Assembly: GCF_963678635.1 (NCBI RefSeq)
Contig: NC_087064.1
Span: 32,745,028 to 32,809,027 of the forward strand
Origin: Symsagittifera roscoffensis
Taxonomy: Eukaryota
Reading direction: 5' to 3'
Length of the DNA: 64,000 bases
Shown here: positions 13,700 to 30,960 of the stretch, one piece after another
Position numbering within the stretch: the first letter of the stretch is position 1
How the letters are laid out: every line of letters begins with the position of its first letter
Position numbers and translations under genes: made by a program
The notes under the pieces: model-generated
The model's input: the letters and a program-made list of their open reading frames with translations, nothing else
Databases searched by the model: none
What the model was told of the DNA's origin: nothing

Positions 13700-13890
13700 A
13701 TATAAATATGCTTCGGAATCAGAACAAACTGTTATACTGAGTAAACAAGGATTTTATCTAATCAGACATATACTTCATTTTTGCTTCAAATATTTGACAG
13801 CTTAAAAATGACAGCACAAGAGTTTGCTCTGATTCCGAAGCATATTTATGTCTGATTAGATAAAATCCTTGTTTACTCAGTATAACAGCT
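13700..13890. repeat. Rearranged inverted repeat. Blocks X (aaatatgcttcggaatcagaacaaact) and Y (gttatactgagtaaacaaggattttatctaatcagacata) are followed about 45 bp later by their reverse complements in the order X' Y'.
   Basis: A direct read of 13700-13775 versus 13815-13890 shows this. Confidence 0.6.
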
Positions 13891-14061
13891 GATTTTTTTG
13901 TCGAGATTCGTTTTTGGATTGAGGAGAATCCTATATATTTCTTCGAAATTATTAAGATTTGGAGTACTAACAGGCACATTACCGTTGACTACATTGAGCA
14001 AGCATTCGCAAACGACTGATATAACTTGAGTATTTGATGATTATCTAGTAAAGCTCGGTAT

Positions 14062-14812
14062 TTAACTTGGATTCAATTGTACCATGTGTTGCAGAATGGA
14101 TGATTTTTCGCGTTCATTTGTGATGGGTGATGCCTTATCTAATGGTAAATAGAAAATTGACGGACCAGGTGTTATTATGTTTGAACAGTATCTCAGACAG
14201 TCTGATGTTCGGGGATCTAAGTCTATTAATAGATGTCCAAAGCTGTTTTTGGTAGCCAGTTCATACGATTGTCGTAAAAATTTAGGTGCATTAAGTTGTC
14301 TTCCGAGGTGATCAAGTTGCTGAATATCACGAGATGATTTGAATAAAATTATGTGAGATGTGTTCAAATCAATAGTTCGTGACCATCGACTTTGTTGGAA
14401 TGAATTATGTTTGACATAAATAACATCTAAGCCTTTGTGTCTTCCTGCTGTTGCTAGTTTAACGAATTCTTCATCATTGTATATTTCTTCGCATGAGTCA
14501 TCAAACACTAACAGAATGTTTTCAATGTTTCTCAAACGATCGAATCCATCAAATTTGACAAATTCGATTTGAATTCTGCCAGCGTTCCTCGTCCCTAAGT
14601 ATAGGTTGAATATCTTTGTAAAAAAATAATACTCTTCCAAATTTTGGATAAAAAGTTCTCACTTTCAATAATTTGAAAATTAATTCTGTTTTTCCTGATC
14701 CCGAAGGTCCTACAACTGCCATAAACAGTCTTGTCGACATATCAATAATTCTATTTGTATCCTTGGGTTTGGTAACTCGTACCCAACTAAACCAGACAAT
14801 ATGGAAAACCAA
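14062..14812 (-). pseudogene. FtsK/HerA-superfamily (A32/IVa2-like) DNA-packaging ATPase, with a frameshift between the Walker A and Walker B parts.
   Basis: ORF 14549..14812 has the Walker A motif AVVGPSGSGKTELIFKLL. ORF 14062..14640 has the Walker B-like motif NILLVFDDSCEE and continues to KHNSF..SR. Confidence 0.55.
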
Positions 14813-16347
14813 ACTGATGTTTCTTCACAGCTTAGTTGCATCAAAGAAAGTTTATAGATACAAAAGCATAGTAAAATTAAAATTATAATAATTTGATACA
14901 TAAAAACTACTTCTGATCTGGGAACAGTGGCATCAAAACAAAATTTCCAAGATTTTTGTTCGGTGTTATTTCGATCATAAACAAAATCAGTAACTATATT
15001 TGCATCAGGCTCATCATCTGCTATTTCAGACATTCACGTTTTCAATTTTTTTTCTCTCTCTCTCTGACTATCTATCTATATCAACCGTTTCTTATTGAGG
15101 AAGAAAAATGTGTGGTTATGAAATTTATTATTTGATTTTCTGAACAGTAAAAAATCTCGTATCGATTATAACCAGTGTAAACATTAGTAGTATCATTTTC
15201 ATTGTCATACATTTCCACTACATAATTGGCTGGGACATTCTTAGTTTTCACATGATATATGATTTTCTTCACTGAGTTTTCTTGTACTAATTTCTGAACT
15301 TCCTCAGGTTAATCACTGCTGCTGAGGTCCATTTGAACTCCGGGCTGACATTTGGGTACTAAGACTAGCTTGGGAACTTAAACTCCTCGTTTACTGGCTA
15401 ACATTTTGAATAAACTTGAATCGTTGAAAGTAGATAAATTGGTCAATCACCGGGAAAAACCTTCTCAAAATAGTTAATTCCTCTTCATATGAAGTGATTT
15501 GTTCTTTTCGCTGCACCACTTGACCTCGGCAATCGATTCGTTCTGCTCTTGTTAATGATATTTTGATGTCACTCTCTGGATTCATCCAAGCACATAACAC
15601 TGAATTTGGAGATAGGGTCGTCTCCAGCTTCGCTAGTCTCTCGCTGTTGCTCATTTTTCAGCCAATAAAAAAACGCCTTGCTTTTCTTCAGGGCGCAGTG
15701 ATTCATGGAGTGGTTATGATGTGAAATAAATCTCACAGTCAAATTAATCTCGTGAATGATTTCCAAGTCCGTTGAAGTAACTCTACCTTTTTTCCAATTT
15801 CATTTTTATTTTTTTTCCAACACCTCGCGGACCTGCTGAATTTCAAGCCAGTGGAAGTGAAAGTGACCTTGCAGATACCACTTACTCAGTCCTATATCTC
15901 GGTGGTAGATATTTAGATAGATCACTGGAAGTTTTTGATATTTTGAAAATTTATCAAAACAAAGTCGAATCATTCGCTCCACCCCTTTCTCAATCATCAT
16001 AGAGTCAAAATCGAATGAGTAATTAAATCGGTTTTCATATGTAGCAATGATTACATCAATAGCCCTACCATTTTTCTGTTTTGTATAAACGCACCACGTT
16101 ATTTGTAAGAGCTCATTCAAATAAAACAGAGCTGTTTACAACTCTGCTAATATACTTCTGGTGCTTTATCTGCTATTTTTTTCCACCGTGATATGAAAAC
16201 TATATAACGGTCGTTAATACAACTGTTTTTTGATCGGGTACCAGTTGAGAAGACAGAGAAACTTAAATGCTCACTATCAATATCTTCAGTATGCCAATCT
16301 CGAATTAAAATCATTTTGCTCAATTCGTTATTCCATAATTTCAGCAT
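14710..16347 (-). other. Run of short co-oriented ORF fragments (14710..15033, 15081..15272, 15391..15654, 15569..15766, 15806..16120, 16147..16347) with no recognisable domains. They are probably further decayed genes of the same element.
   Basis: All lie on the minus strand and are contiguous with the ATPase. No motif was identified. Confidence 0.2.
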
Positions 16348-16682
16348 TATTTTTATTGTTCATTTATGTCATGACACCGGACTGTCAGCCGCTCTTCAAA
16401 CTTCGTGAGTGTTTCAGATTGCTAAGCGTTGGTTCAACAATAAAAGATGCATACGGAAAAGAAATGGTTTACAGCTACCAACGGTTTAAATATTTTTGGC
16501 TATAACTTTTACGTTAACTTTAATTCCACTCAAATATGAACGTTATAGTCTTGATCGAACGTTAACGCATGAAAATGCAGTCCCCAGACATACTTTTTTT
16601 ATTATATATCACAACAGCAGTGACTTATTATAATATAGTCATTTCATAGCACTTAGAATACAATACATGTAGTTTTATTTTC

Positions 16683-16860
16683 CTATTTGGAGTGCCCCTG
16701 TGGTTTGAAAAGTTTGTTTGGAGCCCCTATGTGGTTTTGGAATTAGGGTCTTGAGCACCGAGAAATTTTGTCTGGAGCGCCTATGTGGTTTTGGGATAAG
16801 GCTCTGGAGCACCCCTGTGTAGGTTTCCCCCTGCTAAACCCCCCCCCCCCCTGTTGGAGC
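16683..16860. repeat. Minisatellite of about four degenerate 45-bp units (tggagcgcctatgtggttttgggataaggctc-like), ending in a poly-C tract.
   Basis: ggagtgcccctgtggtttg, ggagcccctatgtggttttgg, ggagcgcctatgtggttttggg and ggagcacccctgtgtaggttt, then cccccccccccc at 16840. Confidence 0.7.
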
Positions 16861-17516
16861 GCCGGCGAATTACCTTACTACTACAAATTCTAAAAACAAT
16901 GAAAAATTTTTTTTCCTGATAGTGAAAGAAGCATGCATAGCCAGAGTAGGCGTTTGTGGGCTATATGGCCCCGTTGTCTATCCTCTCCGAGTCTCATTTT
17001 GATACTTACTAATAACGATGAATTGCTAAATTTATGTAATAAATGACCGGAGAAATTTGTTCTTTCTTTCTTTCCCGAACCTTAAGAGCTTTCAAGCGCA
17101 AATTGCAGTATTGCTTCTGTATCAAACTGTCTGTTAGCTATGTTCTCTTGTTGAGTAGATTTAACTAATAAAGGGCCAATCATTGAAATTTATTGAAGCT
17201 TGATAAATTTTTAATTGATATAATTTGAGTTCGTAAACAAAGAAAAAGGTAAATCGTATAATATTTGAAAAGCGGTTCAGTAATATTTTTAACGACTTCG
17301 TTTCTTTGTTTCAGCTTCAATTTCAGAAGAATTGCCGATGTTTGTATTGAAACTACGGGATTTACCGCGTTCTCCGCAATCCGCTGGGTCGCTGCTTGGA
17401 TTCAAAGACCTTTCCTCTGCTCGTAGAGGTATGTTTAGACAATCCGAGGTTAATTTAGATTTTGAACCAACTTCATCACTTAAGACAATTTGGACAGCCG
17501 CAAGTAGCAACAAACT

Positions 17517-18900
17517 ATGTCTGAAGCTACAGGACTTGTGGGTTATTGCAAGGGTTCATTGTTTTCAGGTTTTGGTGGAAGTCTTTTTGATGCCCCCTCA
17601 GAATCATCATCTAGAGAGCCGCTACGTGGTAGGTATCAGCCACTTTCTGGATGTCGTGTTGCTACGGGTGAACCACCATTAATGGGAACATCTATGGCAC
17701 CGCCACAGCCACCAATTTATGAAGGAGGTCCTTTTGGTGCCCCCTCACAACCTTCCTCTGGAGCACCGCTATTTGGGGGACCTCCGCCACCTCCTGGAGG
17801 CGGTCTTTTTGGTGCCCCCTCACAACCATCTTCTAGCGCGCGCCTATTTGGGGGACCTCCGCCACCTCCACCTCCTGGTGGAGGTCTTTTTGGTGCTTCC
17901 TCACAACCATCCTCTGGCGCGCGGCTATTTGGGGGACCTCCGACACCTCCTGGAGGAGGTCTTTTTGGTGCCCCCTCACAACCATCCTCTGGCGCGCGGC
18001 TATTTGGGGGACCTCCGCAACCTCCTGGAGGAAGTCTTTTTGGTGCCCCCTCACAACCATCCTCTGGCGCGCGGCTATTTGGGGGACCTCCGCCACCTCC
18101 TGGAGGAGGTCTTTTTGGTGCCCCCTCACAACCATCATCTAGCGCTCGGCTATTTGGGGGACCTCCGCCACCTCCTGGTGGAGGTCTTTTTGGTGCCCCC
18201 TCACAACCAGCCTCTGGAGCGCCGCTAATTGGGGGACATCTGCCACCTCCTGGAGGAAGTCTTTTTGGTGCCCCCGCACAACCATCATCTAGCGCTCGGC
18301 TATTTGGGGGACCTCCGCCACCTCCTGGAGGAGGTATTTTTGGTGCCCCCTCACAACCATCTTCTAGCGCGCGCCTATTTGGGGGACCTCCGCCACCTCC
18401 ACCTCCTGGTGGAGGTCTTTTTGGTGCCCCCTCACAACCATCCTCTGGCGCGCGGCTATTTGGGGGACCTCCGCCACCTCCTGGAGGAGGTCTTTTTGGT
18501 GCCCCCTCACAACCATCTTCTAGCGCGCGCCTATTTGGGGGACCTCCGCCACCTCCACCTCCTGGTGGAGGTCTTTTTGGTGCTTCCTCACAACCATCCT
18601 CTGGCGCGCGGCTATTTGGGGGACCTCCGCCACCTCCTGGAGGAGGTCTTTTTGGTGCCCCCTCACAACCATCCTCTGGCGCGCGGCTATTTGGGGGACC
18701 CCCGCAACCTCCTGGAGAAGGTCTTTTTAGTGCCCCCTCACAACCAGCCTCTGGAGCGCCGCTATTTGGGGGACCTCGGCCACCTCCTGCTGGAGGTATT
18801 TTCGGTTCTGCTCCTCGGCCGCCATCTCTGTTGTTAATGCCCATATCTCCGCCACTTTCCCCCTCTTCTCCTATTCTATTTGACGACTGTTGTTTTTCAG
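17517..18900 (+). CDS. Putative first coding exon of a host gene. It encodes an N-terminal FG-containing segment, then about 14 copies of a 25-aa GLFG/Pro-rich repeat (GGPPPPPGGGLFGAPSQPSSGARLF).
   Basis: A 468-aa ORF starts at ATG 17517. Degenerate in-frame repeat copies occur at both ends. Candidate acceptors tttctttgtttcag/tttcag lie at 17301-17326. A cag|gtattt donor at 18900/18901 leaves phase 1. That phase is exactly completed by the next exon at 19303. Caveat: the repeat unit is stop-free in all six frames, so ORF length alone is not evidence. Confidence 0.45.
17745..18800. repeat. 75-bp GC-rich tandem repeat, about 14 units.
   Basis: Periodic cctccgccacctcctggaggaggtctttttggtgccccctcacaaccatcctctggcgcgcggctatttgggggac. 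ORFs are open on both strands in several frames. Confidence 0.9.
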
Positions 18901-19302
18901 GTATTTTAAGATCTGAATTTTGAAATGATCCATAAAAAATAATACGAAATATTAAAATTTACTGGGAATACTACTGCTTGTTTCAGATGAAAAAGAAAAT
19001 ATTTTGTTAAATATGGTCGCTGAAAGTTTCATATGTTTGAGAAAAATTTAAAAATTTCGTTAAACATGCTCGTAAAATTAATCACACTGTTGGAGGAAGT
19101 AAGTATTTCAAAAACCTGATTTTTTCCATTCCGAAATTTCAGTGTACCATATGCATTTTCTCATAGTTGTAAGTCTAAATCACGATTCTAGAGTGTCACG
19201 ATGCTGAGCAGGCTTTCTAACGAGGTCTAAATGGGCAATGCCAATAAAATGTTTTTTTTTTAAATATGATTGTTGTGTTTTACTCAGACAAATGTTTTTC
19301 AG

Positions 19303-19740
19303 CGTTTGCACACAGCAGAATAGAGCAAGAGAAATCGGATCTTTTGCCGATGCCGCTAAGTTCTGATTCCGCCCTTCTGCTAAAGCCTGAATCGTATAAA
19401 GCGAAAGTTTCTGCAAAAAAACATGTCCTAAATAGTTCGAAGCAACAGTCAACGCAAGATTTAGTATGTATGTCAAGTGAGGAAGAACAAGCGTATTCTG
19501 CTCCAATCTTGCGCCAATCTAAAGGACTTGTGAAGTCTTCAGATGACGCTGCTGATAGTTTTTATACAATGCTAAATACATCTGTTCGAAGTGAATTAAT
19601 CGAAAGAAAAAGAGGAAAAGGAAATCGAATTGCTACTACATTAGAAAAACCTCCTTTGCCTGAAGATGGGGATTCTTTTACTAATATATCTACATATGAA
19701 CCTGAAGAGATGCAAGATGAAATGTTCTCGACTCAATATG
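19303..19740 (+). CDS. Internal coding exon (146 codons) encoding a Ser/Glu-rich acidic segment (…SSEEEQAYSAPILRQSKGLVKSSDDAADSFY…EPEEMQDEMFSTQY).
   Basis: Acceptor aatgtttttcag at 19291-19302. Consensus donor g|gtgagt at 19741. The open frame spans the whole interval. It enters in phase 1 and leaves in phase 1. Confidence 0.5.
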
Positions 19741-20349
19741 GTGAGTTGGGTCAATATTTATCTTAATCAGCAGCGAAAAAAAAACAACTGATCACTGGTT
19801 GTCAACATTTTTGCTTGAAGTCAATTTGTTCCTCGCGACATGGTATCGAACCATACTTATTGCATGGGATCAATTTTTTTCTCTGGCATAACATTATTTC
19901 CAGGGGAATATCTACAGTTTTCTCGGGTGATTCTCTAGAAAACGTGAAAAAGTTTTTCATTCAAGTTTTGTCGACCTTTAAAACAAATCAATTAAGAAAT
20001 CGGATATATTTGATTAACTTCGCAAAAAAATGTATTGTTTTACCATGCAAGCCAAAACACAAAAGATCAGCGACAGAGCATGATCTGCGTTGTTTTTTTT
20101 AAATGTTTTCATTAGATGAAAGAAAAAAGATGATACAAAAAATTGTTGAAAATACTGTCAAAATAGATTCAAAATATTACCCAATTTAAGATTTTTATTA
20201 GAATATATACTATATTTTTAGTCTGGAAAGTAACAAGTAATTCGGCATAAAATGCGTACTGACTTCTCTTGTGAAAAGCACATGGATTTTGCAAGGGGTT
20301 GCGTTAAATTTTGTCAATTTTTCATAAAGCCCATTTGTTTTTGTTTCAG

Positions 20350-20417
20350 ATTTAATTTATTCAGAAAAGATGACAGAGAGGAGCTGTGTGCCAATGATGG
20401 ATTCGTCAATGATGAAA
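20350..20417 (+). CDS. Small 68-bp exon (…DLIYSEKMTERSCVPMMDSSMMK) that converts phase 1 to phase 0.
   Basis: Acceptor ttgtttcag at 20341-20349 and donor aaa|gttagt at 20418. With the 1-nt overhang from the previous exon the frame is open. It ends in phase 0, as the downstream cassette exons require. Confidence 0.35.
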
Positions 20418-20853
20418 GTTAGTGGATGTTTTTAAAATCTATGCCATGAATGACTCAAAAGTTATCTGGTGTTCTCATTCCCATTGGACGCTTAAATGTA
20501 AATTTTCTTTTCAACCTTCTTTTATCCCATAGAAAGCATCCGATTTTCTGAAACATGTCTGAGTAATTAAATGTGAATGACTAATGCTGCTCCGATTTTT
20601 CTAAACTTGGTCATTAATAATCTATGAATTTCTTTACCGTTAAATAGTTACCTATCTTTGGCATGCAACAACATACACTATCAGCATATTATCAGCGGCG
20701 TCAAAACCCTTGAATTTTTCCTGAATATTTTGTTTTTCGCAATAACTTTAGAACCAGTGAAACATGTTATTAAATCAATCGTATATACCTCGACAATGTT
20801 AAATTATCATAATACGAACTAGAACTAGGTGGAACGCCGAGTTTTGTTTCCAG

Positions 20854-20970
20854 GCTGAAACTGGAGATGAATCGGAATCGGACGATGACAACGGTTTCGG
20901 TCTGTTTGACAATGGCGATCGTATGCAAGAAAATAGAAAAGAGGCGACACTGCGAAAGGCGACGTCTGAT
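20854..20970 (+). CDS. Cassette exon copy 1 (117 bp, 39 codons): AETGDESESDDDNGFGLFDNGDRMQENRKEATLRKATSD.
   Basis: Acceptor ttttgtttccag and donor gat|gtgagt. The frame is open, phase 0 to phase 0. Confidence 0.5.
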
Positions 20971-21049
20971 GTGAGTTTTAATGTCACTTTTCGCGTCAAG
21001 TTTGTTCAGATTTGATGAATGTAGTTAAGATTTTTATAGAGGTCATTGT

Positions 21050-21440
21050 AGTTTTTTTTTTCAGGAAAAGTATTAATATTGTTCAGGCTCAAATTAACGT
21101 TTTTGTGGTTTGACTTTGGATTTATTTTAAGTTTCGTTCCTTTCTTTTGTTTAAAGCAGGCAAACTCTGCAAACGAATAGCAAAAGTGTAAAGGATACGG
21201 AAACCTGATCGACTTATTTTCCCGAAAATGAGTTTTAGTTAACACATTTTCCAGAAAAATAAAAATAATAATGCATTGAGTCGTTTTCTAAAATTGGGTT
21301 AGTTTTAATCAAAAAGTATCAATCATAAATTCGAAAAGCTTTCAGGTCATCTTTTTTCTCTGAAACTTGAAAGTTGACGTGTTTTCGAAAAGCCAGTCAG
21401 TATTTTTTCCTTGTGTTCATTGACTCTTTGGCATGCAACA
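21050..21440 (+). repeat. Copy of the 400-bp repeat family inside the duplicated exon-intron unit.
   Basis: ttcaggaaaagtattaatattgttcaggctcaaattaacg ... aaagttgacgtgttttcgaaaagccagtcagtattttttccttgtgttcattgactctttggcatgcaacaactg. Confidence 0.55.
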
Positions 21441-21661
21441 ACTGATGCATTATTAGCGGCGCTAAAACCCTGATTTTCTCTTGAATGTTTTGTTTGCCGG
21501 AATAATCATTCAGACAGTTTTCAAGGCTTGACGAAGGCTTGACAGAAAGTCGTTAAAACTAATGAATTATTTTCTTCATTCAACAATCGTATTTACTGCG
21601 ACAATGCTACCTTATCGCGATACGAACTAGAGGTAGGTGGAACATCTAGTTTTGTTTTCAG

Positions 21662-21778
21662 GATGAAAGTGAAGATGAATCGGAATCGGACGATGAAACA
21701 TGTTTCGGTTCAATTGACAGTGGCGATCGCATGCAAGAAAAAAGTAAAGAGGTGACACTGCGAAAGGCGTCGCCTACA
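21662..21778 (+). CDS. Cassette exon copy 2 (117 bp): DESEDESESDDETCFGSIDSGDRMQEKSKEVTLRKASPT.
   Basis: Acceptor tttgttttcag and donor aca|gtgagt. Open frame, phase 0 to phase 0. It is a paralogue of 20854-20970, with mostly conservative substitutions. Confidence 0.5.
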
Positions 21779-21839
21779 GTGAGTTGAAATGTCTCTTTTC
21801 ACGTCAAGTTTGTTCAGAGTCAATGAACGTAGTTGAGAA

Positions 21840-22150
21840 TTTTATATAGGTCTGGATAGTTTTTTCAGGAACGTGATCCACCTATTTTTGCGAAAATGAG
21901 TTTTAATAAACAGATTTCCCAGCGAAAAAAAATAATGTTTTGATCCGTATTCTCAATTTGGGTAGTTTTAAACCAAAAAAGTATCAAATTTAAATTGTTT
22001 AAGAAAATTAAAAAGCTTATCTGTTATCTCTAAGAAGTTATCTATTTTTCCTCTAAAACTCAAAAGTTGAGGTTTTTCAAAAATCCCTCAGTTTTTTTTT
22101 TCATTTCGTTCACTGGCTCTTCTCGAACTAGCTGTTGCCTGTGTATACTT
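21840..22150 (+). repeat. Copy of the 400-bp repeat family (5'-truncated). Its 3' half is included in the left arm of hairpin 1.
   Basis: ggaacgtgatccacctatttttgcgaaaatgagttttaataaacagatttcccagcgaaaaaaaataatg ... ttcactggctcttctcgaactagctgttg. Confidence 0.5.
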
Positions 22151-22920
22151 AAAAAATTAAAATTAAATTTTAATGAGAACATCCAATGCCTTCTTACCCT
22201 GTGCTTAACTAGGGTGTTACTCCAGAGTGCTAGTTTTTTTTTCGAAGTAAACAAGTTTTGGCGTAGCAACGACCCGGAGACTCCAAATTAATTCAGCTCA
22301 ACGGGTAGATTAGTAAACTAGTTGAAGATTTCAAAAGATCGAAATGGATAATGTTTCTAGAAAGGTTCGACCAACAAGAGGCAACAAGTAAACTCCGGTC
22401 AACTGTGAAAGGACTATCGAACACAATGGGTGTGTTTCTGAGTTTTGGCGTTTGTGTTCGATAGTCCTTTCACATTTGACCAGAGTTTACTTGTTGCCTC
22501 TCGTTGACCGAAACTTTCTAGAAACATTATCCATTTCGATCTTTTGAAATCATCAACTAGTTTTTTAATCTTCACGTTGAGCTCAATTATTTTGGAGTCT
22601 CCGGGTTTTTGCTATGCCAAAACTTGTTCACGTCGAAAAAAGACTAACACTCTGGAGCAACACCCTTGTTAAGCACAGGGGAAGAAGGCATTGGATGTTC
22701 TCATTAAATTTTATTTTTAACTTTCTAAGTATACACAGGCAAGAGCTAGTTCGAAAAGAGCCGGTGAACGAAACGAAAAAAAAAACTGACTGGTTTTTTA
22801 AAAAACCTCAACTTTTGAGTTTAAGAGGAAAAAGAGATAACTTTTTAGAGATAACAGATAAGCTTTTTAACTTTCTTAAACAATTTAAAATTGATACTTT
22901 TTCGATTTAAAACTACCCAA
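21950..22920. repeat. Long hairpin (inverted repeat 1). Arms of about 490 bp (21950-22438 and 22452-22920) at about 90-95% identity flank a 25-nt loop tgggtgtgtttctgagttttggcgt.
   Basis: The reverse complement of 22452-22920 aligns to 21950-22438. Mirror ORFs 22060..22269(-) and 22614..22910(+) encode near-identical peptides. Confidence 0.85.
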
Positions 22921-22924
22921 ATTG

Positions 22925-23345
22925 ACTACATATTGGACTTGATTGCATCTTCGAAGAATTTCAATAAAGCATTTCAATTGTTTCAATTCCAAGTTGTTTG
23001 ATCTTGCGTATAACTTCCTTCTTTCTTTTTTCGATGTTGCTATGGTGTGTAGTGAACTGTTGGTTGCATTTGTCGCAGATCTTTTGTGTGTCATGTAGGA
23101 GTTCATTGTCAAAGATAATGGTTGTGTTTCTGAGTTTTGGCGTTTATCTTTGACAATGAACTCCTACATGACACACAAAAGATCTGCGACAAATGCAACC
23201 AACAGTTCACTACACACCATAGCAACATCAAAAAAGAAAAGAAGGAAGTTATACGCAAGATCAAACAACTTGTAATTGAAAGAATCGAATTGTTTTATTG
23301 AAATTCTTCGAAGATGCAACAAGTCCAATATGTAGAACAAATGGA
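22925..23345. repeat. Hairpin (inverted repeat 2). Arms of about 190-210 bp (22925-23117 and 23133-23345), unrelated to hairpin 1, flank the loop tggttgtgtttctgagttttggcgt.
   Basis: gttcattgtcaaagataa|tggttgtgtttctgagttttggcgt|ttatctttgacaatgaac. The outer arms are ttgattgcatcttcgaagaatttcaataaa ... and ... ttattgaaattcttcgaagatgcaacaagtcc. Confidence 0.85.
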
Positions 23346-23937
23346 TTGGTCCTGACAACTTGCATCAATCCATTTACATTTTTTTTTAGTAAATACGCAG
23401 TCAAGTACTTCAGCCAACTGACAAGCCTCTCACTTAGTAATGCATTAATAGTTGGAAGGGTTATTTTCCTAGCTATTTTCCTTGTATTACTCTCTCCAGT
23501 AGCAAAACTTGTCGAGCGTTTGTTAGCACCGGATATTTTTTGCAACATAAACCTTCCAAGAATGCCAATGGCTTGAAAGAAAGATTAACCACTGCCCTGA
23601 ACTGCATTTTTTTTTAAATTGGTCTGAACCAGGCTAAACCATGTCAGAGAACACTAGTGGTCGCCCTAGACTTGACAACTGGTACACTGTGATCTCATTA
23701 TCAGCGGCGTCAAAACCCTGAATTTTTCTTGATTGTTTTGTTTTTTGGAATAACAATTCATAAGACTTTCATGGCTCGACCATGTAAGAAATTTAATCAT
23801 GATGCACAGTATTTTCTCCGACAGAAAACCTTTAGAACCAATGAAACATGTTATTAAATCAATCGTATATACCTCGACAATGTTAAGTTATCATAATACG
23901 AACTAGAACTAGGTGGAACGCCGAGTTTTGTTTCCAG

Positions 23938-24054
23938 GGTGAAAGTGGAGATGAATCGGAATCGGATGATGACGACGGTTTCGGTCTGTTTGACAATGGC
24001 GATCGTATGCAAGAAATTAGAAAAGAGGTGACAGTGCTAAAGGCGACGTTTGAA
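23938..24054 (+). CDS. Cassette exon copy 3 (117 bp): GESGDESESDDDDGFGLFDNGDRMQEIRKEVTVLKATFE.
   Basis: Acceptor ttttgtttccag and donor gaa|gtgagt. Open frame, phase 0 to phase 0. Confidence 0.5.
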
Positions 24055-24129
24055 GTGAGTTTTAATCTCGCTCTTCACGTCAAGTTTGTTCAGAGTCGAT
24101 GAACGTAGTTAGGATTTTTATGTAAGTTA

Positions 24130-24520
24130 TGATAGTTTTTTAGGAGAAGCAATAAATTTTGTTCAGGCTCAAATTTACGTTTTCGTGTTTTGACTTTGGA
24201 ATTAATTTAACTTCGGTTCCTTTCTTTTGTTAAAAGGAAGGCATACTCTGCAAGCGAATAGCCAAAGTGAAAGGTTACGAAAACATGATAAACCTATTTT
24301 TCCGAAAATGATTTTTAGTTATCAGATTTCCCAGCAAAAAATAACGTATGGAGTCGTTTTCTGAAATTGGATTAGTGTTAATCAAAATGCATCAATCATA
24401 AGGTGTTAAAGAACTTCAGAAAGTTTTCAGGTCACCTTTTTTCTCTGACACTTAAAAGTTGACGTGTTTTCAAAAAGCCAGTCAGTATTTTTTTACTTGC
24501 GTTCATTGACACTTTGGCAT
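24130..24520 (+). repeat. Copy of the 400-bp repeat family (third exon-intron unit).
   Basis: taggagaagcaataaattttgttcaggctcaaatttacg ... ccagtcagtatttttttacttgcgttcattgacactttggcatgcaacaactg. Confidence 0.55.
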
Positions 24521-25764
24521 GCAACAACTGATGCACTATCAGCACATTATCAACGGCGCTAAAAACCCTGATTTTCTCTTGAAAGTTTTGCTTGCCGGAC
24601 AATGTTTACTAATATTTTATTAGTATTTACGCAAGTGAGCTTGCGAGCATTGTGTTATAATGCGAGTCAACTTTCGCTGCATAATTTTGGCAGTCCAATA
24701 GAATTAGTTTTCCGCTTTATCAGTGGCTAGTGTATCTATTTTTATTTATATTGGGTCATGTATCACAGTTGTGTAGCTTGTCGACTTGGATGATCCAGGC
24801 TTGTGGTGCAACTCCTGTAGAGAGCACTGATTCAGTTTTTAAATCTTTTTTGAGCTATTTCTCTGCGTTTTGTTGATTTCTTGCTTGCCTTTTTTGAGCT
24901 ATTTCTTGGCTCCGCCTCTGTGTTTTTTGCTAGTGTATCTTGCTCGGGATTTCTGAGCTGGAATCTCGTTGCCTCAGAAGTTTTATATTGTGAAATTGAT
25001 GTGGTATTTTTTAAATTACTTGCGAATCCTTTTTCCCCGTTTTTGGAGCTAGTTTTTTCCGAGTAGGCTTTGTTACTGCTTTGTAAGTTTTAGTATGTTG
25101 TTAATTTATCATTAAATTGTTTGACTTTACTTTTTGCTCAATGTGATTTTTTCTCAATCCAATTCGAGACAAACATATAAAAATTTTGCTAGATAAGTTT
25201 CTTGACATAATTTCAAAAAATATTCGACTTAGCGGCTTACGTCTTATCTTCTGTCGGCTAGTTTGCCGTGCTAATTTTATGTTGTATCGCAAACATAAAA
25301 AATAGCACGGCAAACTATTTCTATGTTGTATCTGTAAAAATCCAGCTCTCATGCTTGAAATGTCGAATGATATGTTTCTTGAATTATTGAGATATTGAAT
25401 TTGGTAATATAATTGATTATGCTATATGATATTTTTGCTAATCAGAAGCGGGACTATTATTGACTTTCTACCTAGGATTTTCAACAAGTAAAACGTTTGT
25501 TGGTCTTGTCTGCTTTAAATGAAATTTGAATCTGGATTGATTACCATAAGTCAATTTGGTTCATATAAAACGTGAGGATCTTTTTATGCAACCTTGTTAA
25601 ACCCTTGTTTACAGCGTGAAATGTTAAGTGCGGGGAGATACGAAGAAAAATGAGCCAAAAGTGTTAGAACAAGAGCTGTAGAACTTTTTCGGTGATTCAA
25701 TCATTTCTGCTACTCTCATATGAACATTGCTATTTGTTGCCGGAACATTAAGTTCTGTTTTCAG

Positions 25765-25959
25765 TCTGACAGTGTGGAAGAATCAGTTGTGAGGAAAGAT
25801 TTCACCCCCTACTCAGACCCACGCTGCCAATATGACCTCGACTTTGATCTGTTTGGGGACCTGGAAGCTGAATGTGCCCTCGAAGCTCTCCCTAGTCGAA
25901 AGAAAGTTTACTGTCGTAAAAACAAATTAAAAACAAATTGTATTGTTATCCAACGTTAG
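25765..25959 (+). CDS. Putative terminal coding exon: SDSVEESVVRKDFTPYSDPRCQYDLDFDLFGDLEAECALEALPSRKKVYCRKNKLKTNCIVIQR, then a stop.
   Basis: Acceptor gttctgttttcag at 25753-25764 gives a phase-0 start, compatible with the cassette exons. It ends at an in-frame stop. It contains another D-F-D-L-F-G acidic motif. Confidence 0.4.
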   Translation, partial: SDSVEESVVRKDFTPYSDPRCQYDLDFDLFGDLEAECALEALPSRKKVYCRKNKLKTNCIVIQR

Positions 25960-26749
25960 TCTATATTTGCCCCAAAACCGCCATCCATACCTAAACTGCG
26001 CAAAACTGATTAACAACTAGATTAAAAATACAATTAAGAAAAATTTTACAGCGAAAGCTAGATCAAATCTTCTGATCAGCCGTAGAAATCGATTTAGGGG
26101 GATATAATACCGGTTTTTCAGAATTTAACTTAGAAGGTAAAATAGAGTCTTTTCTATTATACGACCCAAACTTCATTGTTTTGATATAATGAAAACTGGA
26201 TCATAATGCTTTATTATGATTGGATGAAATTAACAAATACGAAGGAAATCTGAACCTTAATTTCAAATACATTAGCTCAATTTACGTTTTTGTGATATTG
26301 GGCCACACAACAGGAAAGACGCGCAAAATAAGATGATCTAATAAATAAAATTTAAAAAAATCGAAACAGAATTATGAATAAAATGGGGCCTAGGAAATAG
26401 CTATTCCATGTGAAAGTTTTTATGAAGCACTATTTTTTGCGCGCTTGTTTGAAATGATTATTTTATGCGTAATCTTTTTTCAAAATTATTACAACGCAAA
26501 GGGGAAATAACTCTTAGGAGGCAAAGATAACACTTAGGAGGAGAGATACAAATTATCAACAAGCTGTTTTTCATAAAATGAGTAATTTTTCTATAATTTT
26601 TTCTTATTTGTTTCAGATCCCAAGAGTATGGATGGGCTGAATTTGAGGCCGAAGAAGAATCCGAATACCAGGCTACAAAAACATTGACGAAGTTCGTTTG
26701 ATTTCTAAATGTTAATTTTTAATTTATCTTTCATTTAGGTCAGGTGTTT

Positions 26750-27163
26750 TTTTCCAGAGTTTTGTTCATGCTGATTTTTGAGTCTTCGCGGTCCCTTCTG
26801 ATTTCTCTTCAAGTTCAGTGATATTGTTTTGCTAATTGGAGGGAAAAGTACACACTTCAATTACGAAAAAGCAAAAGGCGCGAGAAATGTGTTTCACTTG
26901 TAAGCTCGAAGTTCGGACTTTAGTTTTGAGGTTTCCCAGCGGATTAAGAAATTAGTTATCGATCCAGTTTTCCGAAGTTGTGTTGAGAAAAGGAAAAAAG
27001 TTCAATCATAAGAGAGTGTTGAATACAAATGATCTTTATTTTATTACATATTTTTGCTCCGAAATTTGAAAAAAATTAACAAAGTCCATTTTTTGGTTTC
27101 CTTGTTAATTAACACTTTTCCAATTATCTTACGGCTATGTTTTTCAACTATCTGACGGCTATA
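26750..27163 (+). repeat. Copy of the 400-bp repeat family. Its tail abuts the poly-T end of the LINE.
   Basis: ttttccagagttttgttcatgctgatttttgagtcttcgcggtcccttctgatttc ... aacaaagtccattttttggtttccttgttaattaacacttttccaattatcttacggctatgttttt caactatctgacggctata. Confidence 0.55.
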
Positions 27164-27270
27164 TTTTTTTTAGTTGCACTTGATGCAGCATTTGAAAAGT
27201 CTCTAATGAACTTCCACTTGTGGATCCAGTGGCAACCGCCTTGTTGTTGTTGTTGTTGCCCTTCTGAGAT

Positions 27271-30200
27271 CTATTCGTCGCTCGTTGTTGGGTCCAGGGT
27301 TGTGGGGAGTTTCAGGAATATTGTTGTCTTCTTCGGTTGCTTCCAGAGATCGGCTGGGGTTAAGTTCGTAGGATTTGCGATGCAGTCGAACAGGTGTATA
27401 GTTGTGTGGCTTGTTTGCTGGCAGTCCGGGCAAAGTTCGCTTACTGTCGGGTCAATTCTGTTCATGTACGAGTTCAGGAACTTTGAGTAGCCGGATCTGA
27501 GCTGTGCCAGTGTTCTTCTCGTTGTTCTTGGTAATTCGGTTTCTTCTTTGGCAATTTTTGGTGGATTGTGTCCGAGGACTGCTGGGTGTTCGTAGGTTTG
27601 TAAGGCGTCGCGTACCTCATTTGTGTGGATCGTTTTTAGCAGGTTTCTGTACTTCTTTTCGGTTAGAGGTCTATTGCTGTCGAGTAGAGGTTCAATGTAT
27701 CTTTCTTCATATCGTGTTTGGAGGGTTTCTTTCATGAGTCTTGGTGGGTTCTTGGGTTCTTTCGTGAGTTGGTTTCCTGGGTGATCTGGCAAGTGGTTGG
27801 CGAGATGATGTTGTATCGTTCGCATTCTGAGGTGTCGTCTAACTGGTAGAACGGATGTTTCTTGGTGAAGGTGGTCTATGTGAGTCATGGCGTGGCATCC
27901 GGTGATTGTTCTCAGGGCGCTGTTTTGGACCTTCTGTAGTTTCTCGATGTTGCTTTCGGAGAGTGTGGGCGTTATCACAGCGGCGCCGTACTCAAGTTTA
28001 GTGCGAACAACCGCTTTGTAGGTCATGAGGAGTGTTTCCTTGTCGCTTCCCCAGTCAGTGCCGGCAAGCGCTTTCAGGGCGTTGTTGCGTTGAGAGCATT
28101 TCTTCGCAGTGTCTCTGCAATGGGCCCCGAAAGTGTGCATGGTGTCGAAAGTGATGCCGAGGATCTTCGCTTGGTTGTTCATTCTTATTTGTTCATTGTT
28201 TATCTTCACTTCAGGAACGGTTTTGTATTGGGCTGTCTGTGGTGTCATCAGCGTGACAAAACTCTTGTCAATGGAGATCTGGAGGTTTCGCTCTTCGAAG
28301 AAGTTCACTAGTTCTGCGAGGTACTCCGTTTGTTTTCCTGCCATTGCTGGTATGTCGGTGCCGAGAATGAGGGACGTGAAGTCGTCTGCGTAGGACTTGA
28401 TCTTGATTTCGTCCGGAGGGCTAGGTGCGTCTGCGACGTAGTAGTTGAAAAGGAGTGGCGACAAAACTGATCCTTGTGGCACTCCAAACCGAACTATCCG
28501 TGCTTTTGAGAGAGAGTCGCGAAACAGTGTTCTTGCTTGTCGTCCTTGTAGGAAGTTCGCGAGCCATCTTTTCAGAGCACTGGGCAGACTGGTCTTGTTG
28601 ATGAGGTCGAGGAGCTTGGAATGCTTAACCGTGTCGAAGGCTTTCGACAGGTCAATCGCGACAAGCAGAGTCCTGTCGGCTGGTTTCTTTCTGTTGAAGC
28701 CGTTGGAGATGGCTGTCGTGATGTCACAAAGAGCGGTGACCGTTGAGTGCTTGGACCGGAAGCCGTGTTGGTGACTGGCGAAGTGGAGGTGTTCGGTGAT
28801 GAGAGGTTGGATGCACTTCTCCAGGATCTTCGAGGCTGGGCAAAGCAAGGAGACGGGTCTGTACGAGTTGCTGAGGCCTGCGTCTTTGCCTGGTTTCAGC
28901 AGCGGAATAATGACTGACGACTTCCAAATTGCTGGGATCTGGCATTTGCTGAGCGACAGGTTGAAGATCTTCGTGAGGTAGTTGATAGCATTTGGTCCGA
29001 GGTGTTTCATGTGAGTGGTCGAGATGTTGTCTGGGCCGAATGCTTTGGAGTTCTTCGCGTTCTGTATGGCAGTTTTTACTTGTTTGGAGGTAATGACTGG
29101 GGCGTCGTTGAGAGGTTGTTTCTTTATGTTTCTGTTTATTTTCCTGTTGTCTTTCTCGGTCTTGTGGTTCATTGGTCTTGCGTATTGTATATTGAAAGCG
29201 TTGCTCATACTGCTGGCGTCTTTAATCTGTTTTTCGTTGAATTTTATTCCTTGATTTGGAGGGGCACTTTGTTTCTTTCCTGTGATCGCGCCGATTGTCT
29301 TCCAGAGTTTGGTCACATTGGTTTTTCTGTCGAATGTTGCCACATGCTCTTTCCATTTCTCCATTCTTTGCTTGGAAATGAGGAAGTCTATCCTGGCGTT
29401 CAAGGTCGGAATGTCTTTGGAGTGAGGGTTGTTTCTTCTTGTTTCGTCTCTTTGCTTGATCAGGCGGGAGGCTGCTGGCGGAATGTTGGGCTTGGCTTTG
29501 GGAATGCGTCCGGAGGGAATGTTGTGAGCAGAAGCAGTGTTCAGAATCTTCCTGAAGACTTTCTCTCCGCTGTGGGTGTCAGATGGTTCTTCTTCGCTCA
29601 GAAAGAGTTCTTCTGTTTCCTGTTTGAAGGTATCCCAGTCGGCTCTGCTGAGGTTCACGAAGGTGCGCTTGGGTGCTCTGACTTCTGTGTCCCTCTTCAG
29701 TTCGATCTTCATGGGAAGGTGATCTGAGCCCAGGGTGATCTCTGTTTTCCAGGAGAGGTCGAGAAGCAGGTCGGAGGAGGCCATGCTGATGTCCGGCGAG
29801 GATGGCTGATCTCCTCGTGGGAGGCGAGTTGGGTGGTCCGTGTTGAGGACGCCGAAGGAGGAGTCTTCAATTTCTTCTGCCAGTTCGGAGCCACGGGTGT
29901 CTTCTTGGTTGCTGGAATGCCACAAGGAACTGTGTGCGTTCGCGTCTCCTACCAGGATTGTCTTGCTGCTGGAGAGGAGGTCTTGCAGGGACGCCTTGTA
30001 ACCTTGAGGACAGCTGCTGGAGGGAGGGATGTAGTAGTTGATGATGTTCAATTCAACTTCGTTCATCTTGATGTTGACTCCCTGGACTTCTCTCGTGCCG
30101 TCGTTCTGCTGATCTATGTCCATGGTGTTGAAGTCGACAGTTTCGTGAATGAGGGTCATGAGTCCGCCACCTCCTTGACCACGATCACGTCGGATGGCAG

Positions 30201-30744
30201 TATAGCCAGGGAACTTCGGCGTCTTGTTCCGTTCTTGTAGTTTGGTCTCTTGAAGGGCGGCAACTGTGATCTTCCTTTCTTGTAGGTAGTTGCTGAGCTC
30301 TTTTGCTTTATTCTGTATGCCATTGCAGTTCAGTTGTAGTAGCTTGAACTTCACTTTCTGGGTTTGTCGGGGGGTCTCTGCAGTGCAGGGGGGGCATCTC
30401 CAGTCTGGCTGAGAGAGGTACTCGGCTGTCTTGCGCATGCCGCTGCATTTCAGGTGCATCCATTCTTTGCATTGGTGGCATCTGATTGTCTGTGTTTTCA
30501 TCTGTCGGGAGCAGACTTTGCAGTTGACTTTTTGTGCCGGACCGGGGTTGGGTTCAATACCAGCCATCAGTAGTTGGAGCAGGAGAAGAGAGGCTGGCGT
30601 TGTCTTCTCCACTACCAAAAACCCGGGTTGAGTGACGAATAGGGTCCCTTTCTGGGAAGTCTGTCGCTGTTGCGGCAGGATTGGCACCATTTGCTCCAGT
30701 TGGAGACGAATCCACCACGAGTAGCCGGTTGCCACTGGATCCAC
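27271..30744 (-). CDS. LINE ORF encoding an EN-RT polyprotein. Order: 2A-like motif, a C4HC3 PHD-like finger (CKVCSRQ..CHQCKEWMHLKC..CPPC) and an APE/EEP endonuclease (LQLNCNGIQNK…LQETKL). Then RT (FGPDNIS…LLVAIDLSKAFDTV…FGVPQGSVLSPLLFNYYVAD…YADDFT), a C-terminal KLQKVQNSALRTITG block and a CPDC…H…C motif.
   Basis: Motifs read directly from the translated ORF. The first codon in the ORF track is GTG, so the real start is uncertain. Confidence 0.85.
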   Translation of the reverse strand: MDPVATGYSWWIRLQLEQMVPILPQQRQTSQKGTLFVTQPGFLVVEKTTPASLLLLQLLMAGIEPNPGPAQKVNCKVCSRQMKTQTIRCHQCKEWMHLKCSGMRKTAEYLSQPDWRCPPCTAETPRQTQKVKFKLLQLNCNGIQNKAKELSNYLQERKITVAALQETKLQERNKTPKFPGYTAIRRDRGQGGGGLMTLIHETVDFNTMDIDQQNDGTREVQGVNIKMNEVELNIINYYIPPSSSCPQGYKASLQDLLSSSKTILVGDANAHSSLWHSSNQEDTRGSELAEEIEDSSFGVLNTDHPTRLPRGDQPSSPDISMASSDLLLDLSWKTEITLGSDHLPMKIELKRDTEVRAPKRTFVNLSRADWDTFKQETEELFLSEEEPSDTHSGEKVFRKILNTASAHNIPSGRIPKAKPNIPPAASRLIKQRDETRRNNPHSKDIPTLNARIDFLISKQRMEKWKEHVATFDRKTNVTKLWKTIGAITGKKQSAPPNQGIKFNEKQIKDASSMSNAFNIQYARPMNHKTEKDNRKINRNIKKQPLNDAPVITSKQVKTAIQNAKNSKAFGPDNISTTHMKHLGPNAINYLTKIFNLSLSKCQIPAIWKSSVIIPLLKPGKDAGLSNSYRPVSLLCPASKILEKCIQPLITEHLHFASHQHGFRSKHSTVTALCDITTAISNGFNRKKPADRTLLVAIDLSKAFDTVKHSKLLDLINKTSLPSALKRWLANFLQGRQARTLFRDSLSKARIVRFGVPQGSVLSPLLFNYYVADAPSPPDEIKIKSYADDFTSLILGTDIPAMAGKQTEYLAELVNFFEERNLQISIDKSFVTLMTPQTAQYKTVPEVKINNEQIRMNNQAKILGITFDTMHTFGAHCRDTAKKCSQRNNALKALAGTDWGSDKETLLMTYKAVVRTKLEYGAAVITPTLSESNIEKLQKVQNSALRTITGCHAMTHIDHLHQETSVLPVRRHLRMRTIQHHLANHLPDHPGNQLTKEPKNPPRLMKETLQTRYEERYIEPLLDSNRPLTEKKYRNLLKTIHTNEVRDALQTYEHPAVLGHNPPKIAKEETELPRTTRRTLAQLRSGYSKFLNSYMNRIDPTVSELCPDCQQTSHTTIHLFDCIANPTNLTPADLWKQPKKTTIFLKLPTTLDPTTSDE
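30538..30591 (-). other. 2A-like ribosome-skipping motif, LLLLQLLMAGIEPNPGP, at residues about 53-69 of the LINE ORF.
   Basis: The reverse complement of 30541-30582 reads ctg ctc caa cta ctg atg gct ggt att gaa ccc aac ccc ggt. This fits D(V/I)ExNPGP with D changed to G, and is preceded by a hydrophobic helix-like stretch. Confidence 0.5.
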
Positions 30745-30861
30745 AAGTGGAAGTTCATTAGAGACTTTTCAAATGCTGCATCAAGTGCAACTAAAAAAAA
30801 AAAAAAAAAAATATAGCCGTCAGATAGTTGAAAAACATAGCCGTAAGATAATTGGAAAAGT

Positions 30862-30960
30862 GTTAATTTTTTTTTTTTTTTTTTTTTTGGTTTCCTTGTT
30901 AATGAACAAAGTCCATTTTTTTTTTTTTTTTTTTTTGGTTTCCTTGTTAATGAACTTCCA
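30862..30960. repeat. Two tandem units of T20+ggtttccttgttaatgaac(aaagtccat), related to the 400-bp repeat tail.
   Basis: tttttttttttttttttttttggtttccttgttaatgaacaaagtccat tttttttttttttttttttttggtttccttgttaatgaacttccacttcaatg. Confidence 0.7.

Follow-up and report, generated by a model that had tools for sequence, protein, structure and literature searches.

In human PARP4 (vault PARP), a disordered region of more than 300 amino acids lies between the vWA domain and the MVP-binding domain; it is located in the largest exon, is under recurrent positive selection (PMC4038475, PMC10450202) and has been proposed to act as a host–pathogen interface (PMC4038475). The human protein ends in a helical MVP-interacting domain (MINT, or MVPID; residues 1562/1570–1724) (PMC12280208, PMC10450202). 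Here we analyse a stretch of 64,000 nucleotides (nt) from the acoel Symsagittifera roscoffensis (the window; coordinates count from its first letter), in which a set of plus-strand exons around 17300–25960 encodes an array of GLFG repeats followed by motifs that resemble the tail of the ribosomal stalk proteins P0, P1 and P2. We favour the reading, with a probability of about 0.6, that these are genuine coding exons for the long disordered linker of the S. roscoffensis PARP4-like gene, and that this linker is the acoel counterpart of the mammalian disordered region and acts as a multivalent tether. We know of no ligand-type motifs in the PARP4 disordered region, and our literature search found no account of that region with GLFG repeats or stalk-tail motifs.

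Elongation factors, GCN2 and ribosome-inactivating toxins dock on the tail of the ribosomal P stalk. Its consensus is SD[D/E]DMGFGLFD (PMC3280276, PMC2632931). Trichosanthin binds the acidic DDD through basic residues, and the GFGLFD/LF part lodges in hydrophobic pockets of both ricin A and trichosanthin (PMC5086656).

The exons are part of a PARP4-like gene model

A sequence-only reading of the locus had proposed a stand-alone novel gene of 'six candidate exons'. It in fact listed seven segments, and it is the list and not the count that holds. Each segment has a polypyrimidine-AG acceptor and a GT donor, and together they splice to 2,436 nt with an 811-codon frame that contains no internal stop. 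The phases chain exactly, as had been claimed, but the accompanying judgement that this is very unlikely by chance was too strong: because the three cassette exons derive from a single duplicated ~770-base-pair (bp) unit, they are not independent phase evidence, and we estimate the chance among independent exons at ~1/30–1/40, which lends support without being overwhelming.

All six proposed junctions are present verbatim in the RefSeq protein XP_063713774.1 ('protein mono-ADP-ribosyltransferase PARP4-like [Symsagittifera roscoffensis]', 2,725 amino acids), with which the raw open reading frame (ORF) of exon 19303–19740 shares a 90% cluster in a cluster look-up. We mapped this predicted (XP_) model back onto the window by tblastn with a junction check. 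The exons under study encode residues ~1729–2504, between the PARP4 catalytic/VIT/vWA part and a helical C-terminal tail, and residues 1–1606 (the catalytic, VIT, vWA, ubiquitin and actin-fragment parts) are encoded by exons to the left of the window. Because the gene model is already in RefSeq, the claim of a novel gene falls; it is an artefact of viewing part of a giant, transposon-riddled gene.

In the parent protein, Pfam places a BRCT domain at residues 2–89, the PARP regulatory and catalytic domains at 306–592 (PARP_reg 306–393, PARP 437–592), VIT at 660–773 (E=2.8e-33), VWA_3 at 935–1107 and ubiquitin at 1448–1517, followed by a weak actin fragment at 1530–1582 and the FG region at ~1790–2150. 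In a search of the PDB, residues 312–1306 align with human PARP4 273–1214 (E=1.9e-171), and PARP4 catalytic fragments are matched with E=8.4e-40.

Within the window the model comprises the following exons, together with the motifs that they encode.

3287–3539, plus strand: upstream RefSeq exon, proline-rich, amino acids ~1607–1691, donor GTAGGC (tblastn; the junction from 3539 to 17315 is GT..AG)
17315–17428, plus strand: RefSeq exon (TSISEELPMFVLKLRDLPRSPQSAGSLLGFKDLSSARR), in which the second haplotype carries an in-frame 27-nt insertion (protein mapping)
17569–18900, plus strand: large GLFG/Pro-rich repeat exon of 1,332 nt, acceptor gttttcag/G at 17568/17569 (Pfam Nucleoporin_FG, protein mapping)
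19303–19740, plus strand: exon of 146 codons, open in one frame only, rich in Ser, Lys and Glu and non-repetitive (splice scan, protein mapping)
20350–20417, plus strand: 68-nt exon, donor GTTAGT (protein mapping)
20854–20970, plus strand: cassette exon A, phase 0–0, 39 codons, with SDDDNGFGLFD at 20878–20910 (splice scan, protein mapping)
21662–21778, plus strand: cassette exon B, with the degenerate motif SDDETCFGSID at 21686–21718 (splice scan, protein mapping)
23938–24054, plus strand: cassette exon C, with SDDDDGFGLFD at 23962–23994 (splice scan, protein mapping)
25765–25901, plus strand: exon with the acidic-aromatic sequence DLDFDLFGDLE (25834–25866), donor GAAAGT (protein mapping)
26617–26691, plus strand: downstream RefSeq exon (SQEYGWAEFEAEEESEYQATKTLT) (protein mapping)
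32535–32664, plus strand: downstream RefSeq exon, whose preceding intron holds an antisense long interspersed nuclear element (LINE) (protein mapping)
32749–32764, plus strand: 16-nt micro-exon ATGTCTTCAGACATAG (MSSDI+G), with sites ttttag/ and /gtaggt, required to reproduce the RefSeq protein
45263–45448, plus strand: exon of the helical C-terminal tail (protein mapping)
45755–45884, plus strand: exon of the helical C-terminal tail (protein mapping)
54211–54340, plus strand: annotated last exon with the stop, inside a repeat that recurs at 61092–61221 (protein mapping)

The splice signals agree with coding on this strand. Between 17000 and 26500, strong splice sites are about ten-fold commoner on the plus strand (15 acceptors and 8 donors; the minus strand has 2 and 1), and the only open plus-strand exons there with both a TTYYCAG acceptor and a GTRAGT donor are 19303–19740, 20854–20970, 21662–21778 and 23938–24054. 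Over the whole window, which is AT-rich (GC about 35–38%), eukaryotic, with TTTYCAG-type acceptors and many retroelements, the plus strand carries about twice as many strong sites (51 acceptors and 44 donors, against 24 and 16). GC skew is persistently positive and AT skew persistently negative. The strand bias and the skews fit a single plus-strand transcription unit that spans the entire window. An Rfam scan of the whole window gave no match.

All introns of XP_063713774.1 in the window are GT-AG except that between 25901 and 26617. This junction needs a GA-AG intron at an AAAG-AAAG tandem duplication that is present in both haplotypes; the canonical GT at 25906, if spliced to 26617, shifts the frame and leads to a stop after 8 codons, again in both haplotypes. 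Either the donor is non-canonical, or the annotation transcripts came from an allele without the additional 4 nt, or the protein is truncated in the sequenced haplotype. We infer that the RefSeq model rests on transcript alignments, because it includes both this non-consensus junction and a 16-nt micro-exon with perfect sites, the kind of exon that an ab initio predictor would not place.

Both ends of the gene as first proposed differ from the annotation. The first exon had been taken to start at ATG 17517, which is in frame but lies within a 140-nt intron, 52 nt ahead of the acceptor at which the annotated exon starts (17569). The proposed stop at 25957–25959 is reached only by read-through of the annotated donor at 25901, where RefSeq leaves this exon and continues for six further exons in the window. 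An orphan gene running from that ATG to that stop and encoding an 811-amino-acid disordered protein, possibly as an isoform from an internal promoter, is a very improbable alternative: the acceptor at 17568/17569 is perfect and used by RefSeq, and the exact 811-amino-acid product, like a 468-amino-acid one, is absent from a collection of 15 billion proteins in which the 2,725-amino-acid model is present. In its favour, the ATG shares the frame of the downstream exon, no stop interrupts the model, and the frameshift incurred at GT 25906 in both haplotypes makes read-through to 25957–25959 a plausible alternative ending.

In the databases searched, the region has no homologue outside its own locus. 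An exhaustive HMMER search against 1.84 billion representatives returned only raw ORFs of this locus, and the non-repetitive C-terminal half of the spliced product had no match in a word-indexed homology search.

A GLFG repeat array in one large exon

The claim of about 14 GLFG-containing repeats of 25 amino acids, resembling FG nucleoporins, is borne out. Tandem Repeats Finder reports a 75-bp repeat at 17723–18806 on the plus strand (14.2 copies, 87% matches) with a higher-order period of 231 bp. The unit encodes LFGAPSQPSS(G/S)ARLFGGPPPPPGGG, with two LFG per unit and ~28 LFG motifs in all, and its product matches Pfam Nucleoporin_FG in 7 stretches (E=3.4e-37). Both Phe positions of the unit are conserved in 10–11 of 11, and the only length variants among units are insertions of 6 nt (PP). 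Differences between units are spread evenly over the three codon positions (112/101/134). The interior of the repeat is also open in two other plus-strand frames and in a 375-amino-acid antisense frame, so an open frame there is not evidence by itself.

We considered a minus-strand gene corresponding to the 375-amino-acid antisense ORF and rejected it, because only the plus-strand frame extends past the repeat on both sides and the splice signals are on the plus strand. Prokaryote-style gene calls on ENA assemblies annotate this antisense ORF (17717–18844, minus strand) rather than the coding plus-strand frame, so that the true product of the repeat exon is missing from ORF-based protein collections.

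The array shares with FG nucleoporins (Nup98/Nup100/Nup116 and the FG regions of Nup54/Nup58) a high density of LFG/GLFG motifs separated by uncharged Ser/Pro/Gln/Gly spacers, and differs in having poly-Pro tracts (GGPPPPPGG) and one Arg per unit in those spacers. Once PARP4, ubiquitin and actin are set aside, the top PDB sequence match is Nup98–Nup96 (E=1.5e-23), and the database FG matches are FG regions of Nup54, Nup58 and Nup98. The likeness is compositional, not orthologous: a homology search with the repeat exon gave only compositional matches to FG nucleoporins of fungi and protists, with no orthologue and no PARP-containing protein among them. No pore-anchoring domain (the Nup98 autoproteolytic domain or the coiled coil of Nup54/Nup58/Nsp1) is matched by Pfam on either the 811-amino-acid model or the 2,725-amino-acid protein, and whereas the database FG nucleoporins carry PF13874, PF21121 or PF04096, the acoel query does not.

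Duplicated cassette exons carry a stalk-tail-like motif

The three 117-bp cassette exons are paralogous, each lying inside a unit of a tandem genomic duplication.

20658–24600, plus strand: duplication array of ~770-bp units (A ~20658–21424, B ~21425–22130, C ~23690–24513, truncated fourth unit ~24514–24600)

Unit B is interrupted by palindromes after ~22130, and the truncated fourth unit has no exon. Copies A and C encode ESESDDD(N/D)GFGLFDNGDRMQE, so that an SDDDxGFGLFD motif, which had been claimed for all three cassettes, is found in two of them. Ten of its 11 residues are identical to the tail of P0, P1 and P2, the only change being Met to Asn or Asp; the preceding acidic serine cluster (ESES) is also shared, and the residues that contact trichosanthin and ricin A (DDD and GFGLFD/LF) are all kept. 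Given the composition of the region, the chance expectation of S-D-D-D-x-G-F-G-L-F-D is ~1e-9, which indicates that the resemblance to the ribosomal stalk tail is real. The ESES cluster of the acoel motif parallels the serines of P proteins, which are phosphorylated (PMC11624264). A further acidic-aromatic variant, DLDFDLFGDLE, is present in exon 25765–25901, as first described.

The similarity does not extend to the rest of the stalk proteins. Neither the P1/P2 N-terminal dimerization domain nor the P0 body is present: Pfam Ribosomal_60s scores only 11 bits (cut-off 28.1; E=0.67), covering profile positions 72–88 of 88. Unlike the stalk proteins, the acoel motif is embedded in a PARP protein, and one of its three copies is degenerate. 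In the literature, the matches listed for the GFGLFD string are ribosomal P proteins or unrelated phosphoproteome lists only. Descent from a P gene is the most economical origin of the 11-residue identity.

Selection, variation and competing explanations

A dN/dS ratio (nonsynonymous to synonymous substitution rates) below 1 between the exon copies had been suggested as a mark of function. Over the whole exon the ratios are instead 2.5 (A–C), 1.4 (A–B) and 1.1 (B–C). The changes are unevenly placed: between A and C the 21-residue motif core differs at 1 residue (20/21 identical) and the other 18 residues at 8 (10/18 identical; Fisher p=0.006), and at the nucleotide level the core diverges at 2/63 positions (3%), the remainder of the exon at 8/54 and the intron alongside by 13%. 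Splice sites and an open frame free of indels are retained in all three copies. The cassette flanks show 4–7 indel events per pair, which puts the probability that a 117-bp stretch escapes indels at 0.12–0.23 per pair.

An 840-kb contig of one ENA assembly provides a second haplotype or individual that is 99.5–99.9% identical to the window, and a 34-kb contig of another ENA assembly is identical to it. Between the two haplotypes there are 27 variant events in the gene span, of which 4 are exonic: G to S in GLFG, LPE to FSF, A to V, and the in-frame 27-nt insertion in 17315–17428. All four change the protein and none is synonymous, and the frame is kept. Such a pattern marks a disordered region whose reading frame and handful of short motifs are important while most of its sequence is not; disorder is here predicted from composition.

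The domain order argues for equivalence with the mammalian PARP4 region (human exon 30). The two regions belong to the same protein family, occupy the same place after VIT–vWA and lie mostly in one very large exon, and both are predicted to be disordered and are fast-evolving with small conserved islands. They differ in length (~350 amino acids in mammals, ~800–1,100 in the acoel), and the acoel region is built from tandem repeats and duplicated cassette exons and has a ubiquitin fold and an actin fragment ahead of it.

Several observations weigh against our reading. Copy B (ESESDDETCFGSIDSGD / ESESDDETCFGSIDSGDRMQE) has lost GFGLFD, and in the other copies the motif, which is C-terminal in P0, P1 and P2, is internal: it is followed by NGDRMQE..., and the exon runs on for 20 codons past each motif before further exons follow. 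There is no overall purifying selection on the region, and exonic polymorphism is not less dense than intronic (p=0.52). The 221-amino-acid tail shows no detectable similarity to MINT, as phmmer against the PDB (which includes full-length human PARP4) gave no PARP4 match at E<=10. Its single-sequence AlphaFold model is all-helical, with 7 helices, and has a confidence (pLDDT) of 40, too poor for comparison. Continuity of the exons with the PARP4 exons in one transcript is predicted by the XP_ model. That model has oddities of its own: a ubiquitin fold and a 60-amino-acid actin fragment directly upstream, one non-canonical GA donor (25901), and a last exon within a repeat resembling a long terminal repeat (LTR).

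Much of this evidence can be turned to a second account, in which the region is translated as part of the PARP4-like protein but is effectively neutral, with the motif left over from the captured terminal exon of a ribosomal P1, P2 or P0 gene and subsequently multiplied by segmental duplication, the GLFG array a product of replication slippage, and only length, disorder and an open frame of importance. This account would explain cassette dN/dS values of at least 1, repeat-unit differences that ignore codon position, exonic polymorphisms that are all non-synonymous and no rarer than intronic ones, the loss of the motif in copy B and the failure to find a homologue among 1.84 billion representatives; an 11-residue identity is also reached more easily by descent than by convergence. 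It does not readily explain why the motif core shared by A and C has changed far less than either the remaining exon or the flanking sequence (p=0.006; 3% against 13–15% nucleotide divergence), why splice sites and an indel-free frame survive in 3 of 3 copies beside flanks with 4–7 indel events per pair, or why both repeat Phe positions are conserved in 10–11 of 11, and the mammalian equivalent is under positive selection rather than neutral (PMC4038475). We regard it as unlikely.

The oddities of the model suggest another alternative, that the annotation is a chimera in which RefSeq has fused PARP4 to the real spliced exons of a separate, lineage-specific gene downstream, so that these exons have no link to PARP4 or to vaults. 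A ubiquitin that ends in an intact RLRGG and a 60-amino-acid N-terminal actin fragment stand between the PARP4 part and the region, a 13.8-kb intron full of mobile-element ORFs separates 3287–3539 from 17315, and the undetected MINT similarity, the LTR-like last exon and the single non-canonical donor also fit. However, the junctions from 3539 to 17315 and from 17428 to 17569 are canonical and keep the frame; a TAG at 17505–17507 sits 4 codons upstream of the sole candidate ATG, which is itself in an annotated intron; the order of catalytic part, VIT–vWA, long disordered region in a very large exon and helical C terminus is as in mammalian PARP4; and the plus-strand excess of splice sites over all 64 kb fits one long plus-strand gene. 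A fusion of this kind is unlikely.

The ubiquitin–actin piece merits description in its own right. Residues 1446–1584, encoded to the left of the window, comprise a ubiquitin fold ending intact in ...LRLRGG-G and then the first ~60 residues of actin. If this piece is real, cleavage by a deubiquitinase after the di-glycine could release the half of the protein that carries the GLFG repeats and stalk motifs; if it is not, the model is mis-joined.

A possible multivalent tether

Under the PARP4 linker reading, the region would have been built by two rounds of tandem amplification in the acoel lineage. Within one large exon, ~14-fold amplification of a 75-bp unit would have produced a cohesive GLFG/Pro-rich array, and a ~770-bp genomic unit would have been amplified 3–4 times, with each exon-bearing copy adding one symmetric 117-bp exon. 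The outcome would be a flexible multivalent tether of ~800–1,100 residues on an ADP-ribosyltransferase, on which ~28 LFG motifs could self-associate or bind nuclear transport receptors, two intact SDDDxGFGLFD motifs could dock stalk-binding proteins, and DLDFDLFGDLE may add one further acidic-aromatic motif. Through such motifs, partners would be recruited to the ADP-ribosyltransferase and, should the tail bind MVP, also into the vault. Both the association of the acoel protein with vaults and the partners of its motifs are putative.

Vaults have been reported to enclose 80S ribosomes in a fixed orientation (PMC13100048) and to occur at nuclear pores (Chugani et al. 1993, cited in PMC13100048). 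A literature search for a connection between MVP, the nuclear pore complex and FG repeats found no paper. In a more speculative and quite improbable extension, the PARP4 linker would form a vault-tethered decoy or docking platform that displays phosphorylatable copies of the stalk tail beside a GLFG phase and captures proteins that dock on the P stalk, perhaps ADP-ribosylating them. Candidates for capture at or inside the vault would be translational GTPases, GCN2 and ribosome-inactivating toxins of pathogens or symbionts; alternatively, the motifs might set the position of ribosomes inside the vault or connect vaults with nuclear pores. If this were true, it would offer a concrete molecular way into two long-standing questions about vaults, their encapsulation of ribosomes and their association with nuclear pores, and an example of the 'bait' model proposed for the fast-evolving disordered region of PARP4.

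The interest of the locus is that a distant bilaterian lineage fills this PARP4 region with two classes of motif, GLFG repeats and near-exact copies of the P-stalk tail. Functional motifs would make this natural variant a source of directly testable partners for a vault component; without function, the locus would still be a clean example of linker growth by repeats within an exon and duplication of symmetric exons. The weight to be placed on it is limited by the single species, the predicted transcript, weak selection outside the motif core and the putative nature of the function.

Mobile elements and palindromes in the introns

The repeat that contains the annotated last exon spans 54199–54447 and recurs 6,881 bp downstream at 61080–61328, the two copies flanking a minus-strand BEL/Pao element. 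Because of this arrangement the repeat is probably the LTR of that element, and the last ~43 residues and stop of the protein are probably transposon-derived. Each copy holds a 76-bp × 2 tandem repeat. The only transfer RNA calls in the window, ARAGORN 'tRNA-SeC' at 54199–54284 and 61080–61165, fall inside this repeat, where they overlap a coding exon, and we regard them as false positives.

All BEL/Pao copies lie in introns of the PARP4-like gene. Two tandem, nearly identical copies occupy 47167–59928 on the minus strand and encode gag (DUF1759), reverse transcriptase and integrase; their ORFs of 1,237 and 946+ amino acids share an N-terminal Gln/Pro-rich region and a 24-bp × 3 repeat (51947–52018, 58858–58929). 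A third, more degraded BEL-like copy is found on the plus strand at ~41300–43600. The LINE has an intact ORF of 1,157 amino acids (27271–30744, minus strand) with a PHD-like finger, an endonuclease and a reverse transcriptase. It is flanked by inverted repeats (27107–27250 and 30714–30868, 94–100% complementary), an unusual arrangement in non-LTR elements. At 40–46% identity, the nearest relatives of this LINE are all on ~4-kb metagenome contigs, and the named matches are to arthropods at 22–25% identity.

In the 13.8-kb intron 3540–17314, minus-strand ORFs of 110–190 amino acids at ~10000–14700 have no Pfam or PHROG match, and one ORF near this cluster (~12346–12669) has a precomputed match to the rve integrase. 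ORF 14062–14640 may encode a P-loop protein of the packaging-ATPase type. The cluster is an unclassified mobile element or virus-like insertion. The idea that the PARP4-like gene is cargo of a Polinton/Maverick-like element at 10–14.6 kb was rejected, because the element sits in an intron and our search for terminal inverted repeats enclosing the gene found none.

Two adjoining long palindromes lie in the intron between cassettes B and C (21953–23335) and are present in both haplotypes. Palindrome 1 (21953–22925) has ~474-nt arms that are ~90% matched, and palindrome 2 (~22926–23335) has 176-nt arms that are 95% matched; the arms of the two are unrelated. The outer part of the left arm of palindrome 1 is ordinary local intron, which makes the right arm an inverted copy of host DNA. 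Both palindromes have an identical 22-nt central loop, TGTGTTTCTGAGTTTTGGCGTT, in the same orientation (22431–22452 and 23123–23144; 0.01 expected by chance), and they resemble hairpin or foldback loci in which the loop is constant and the arms vary.

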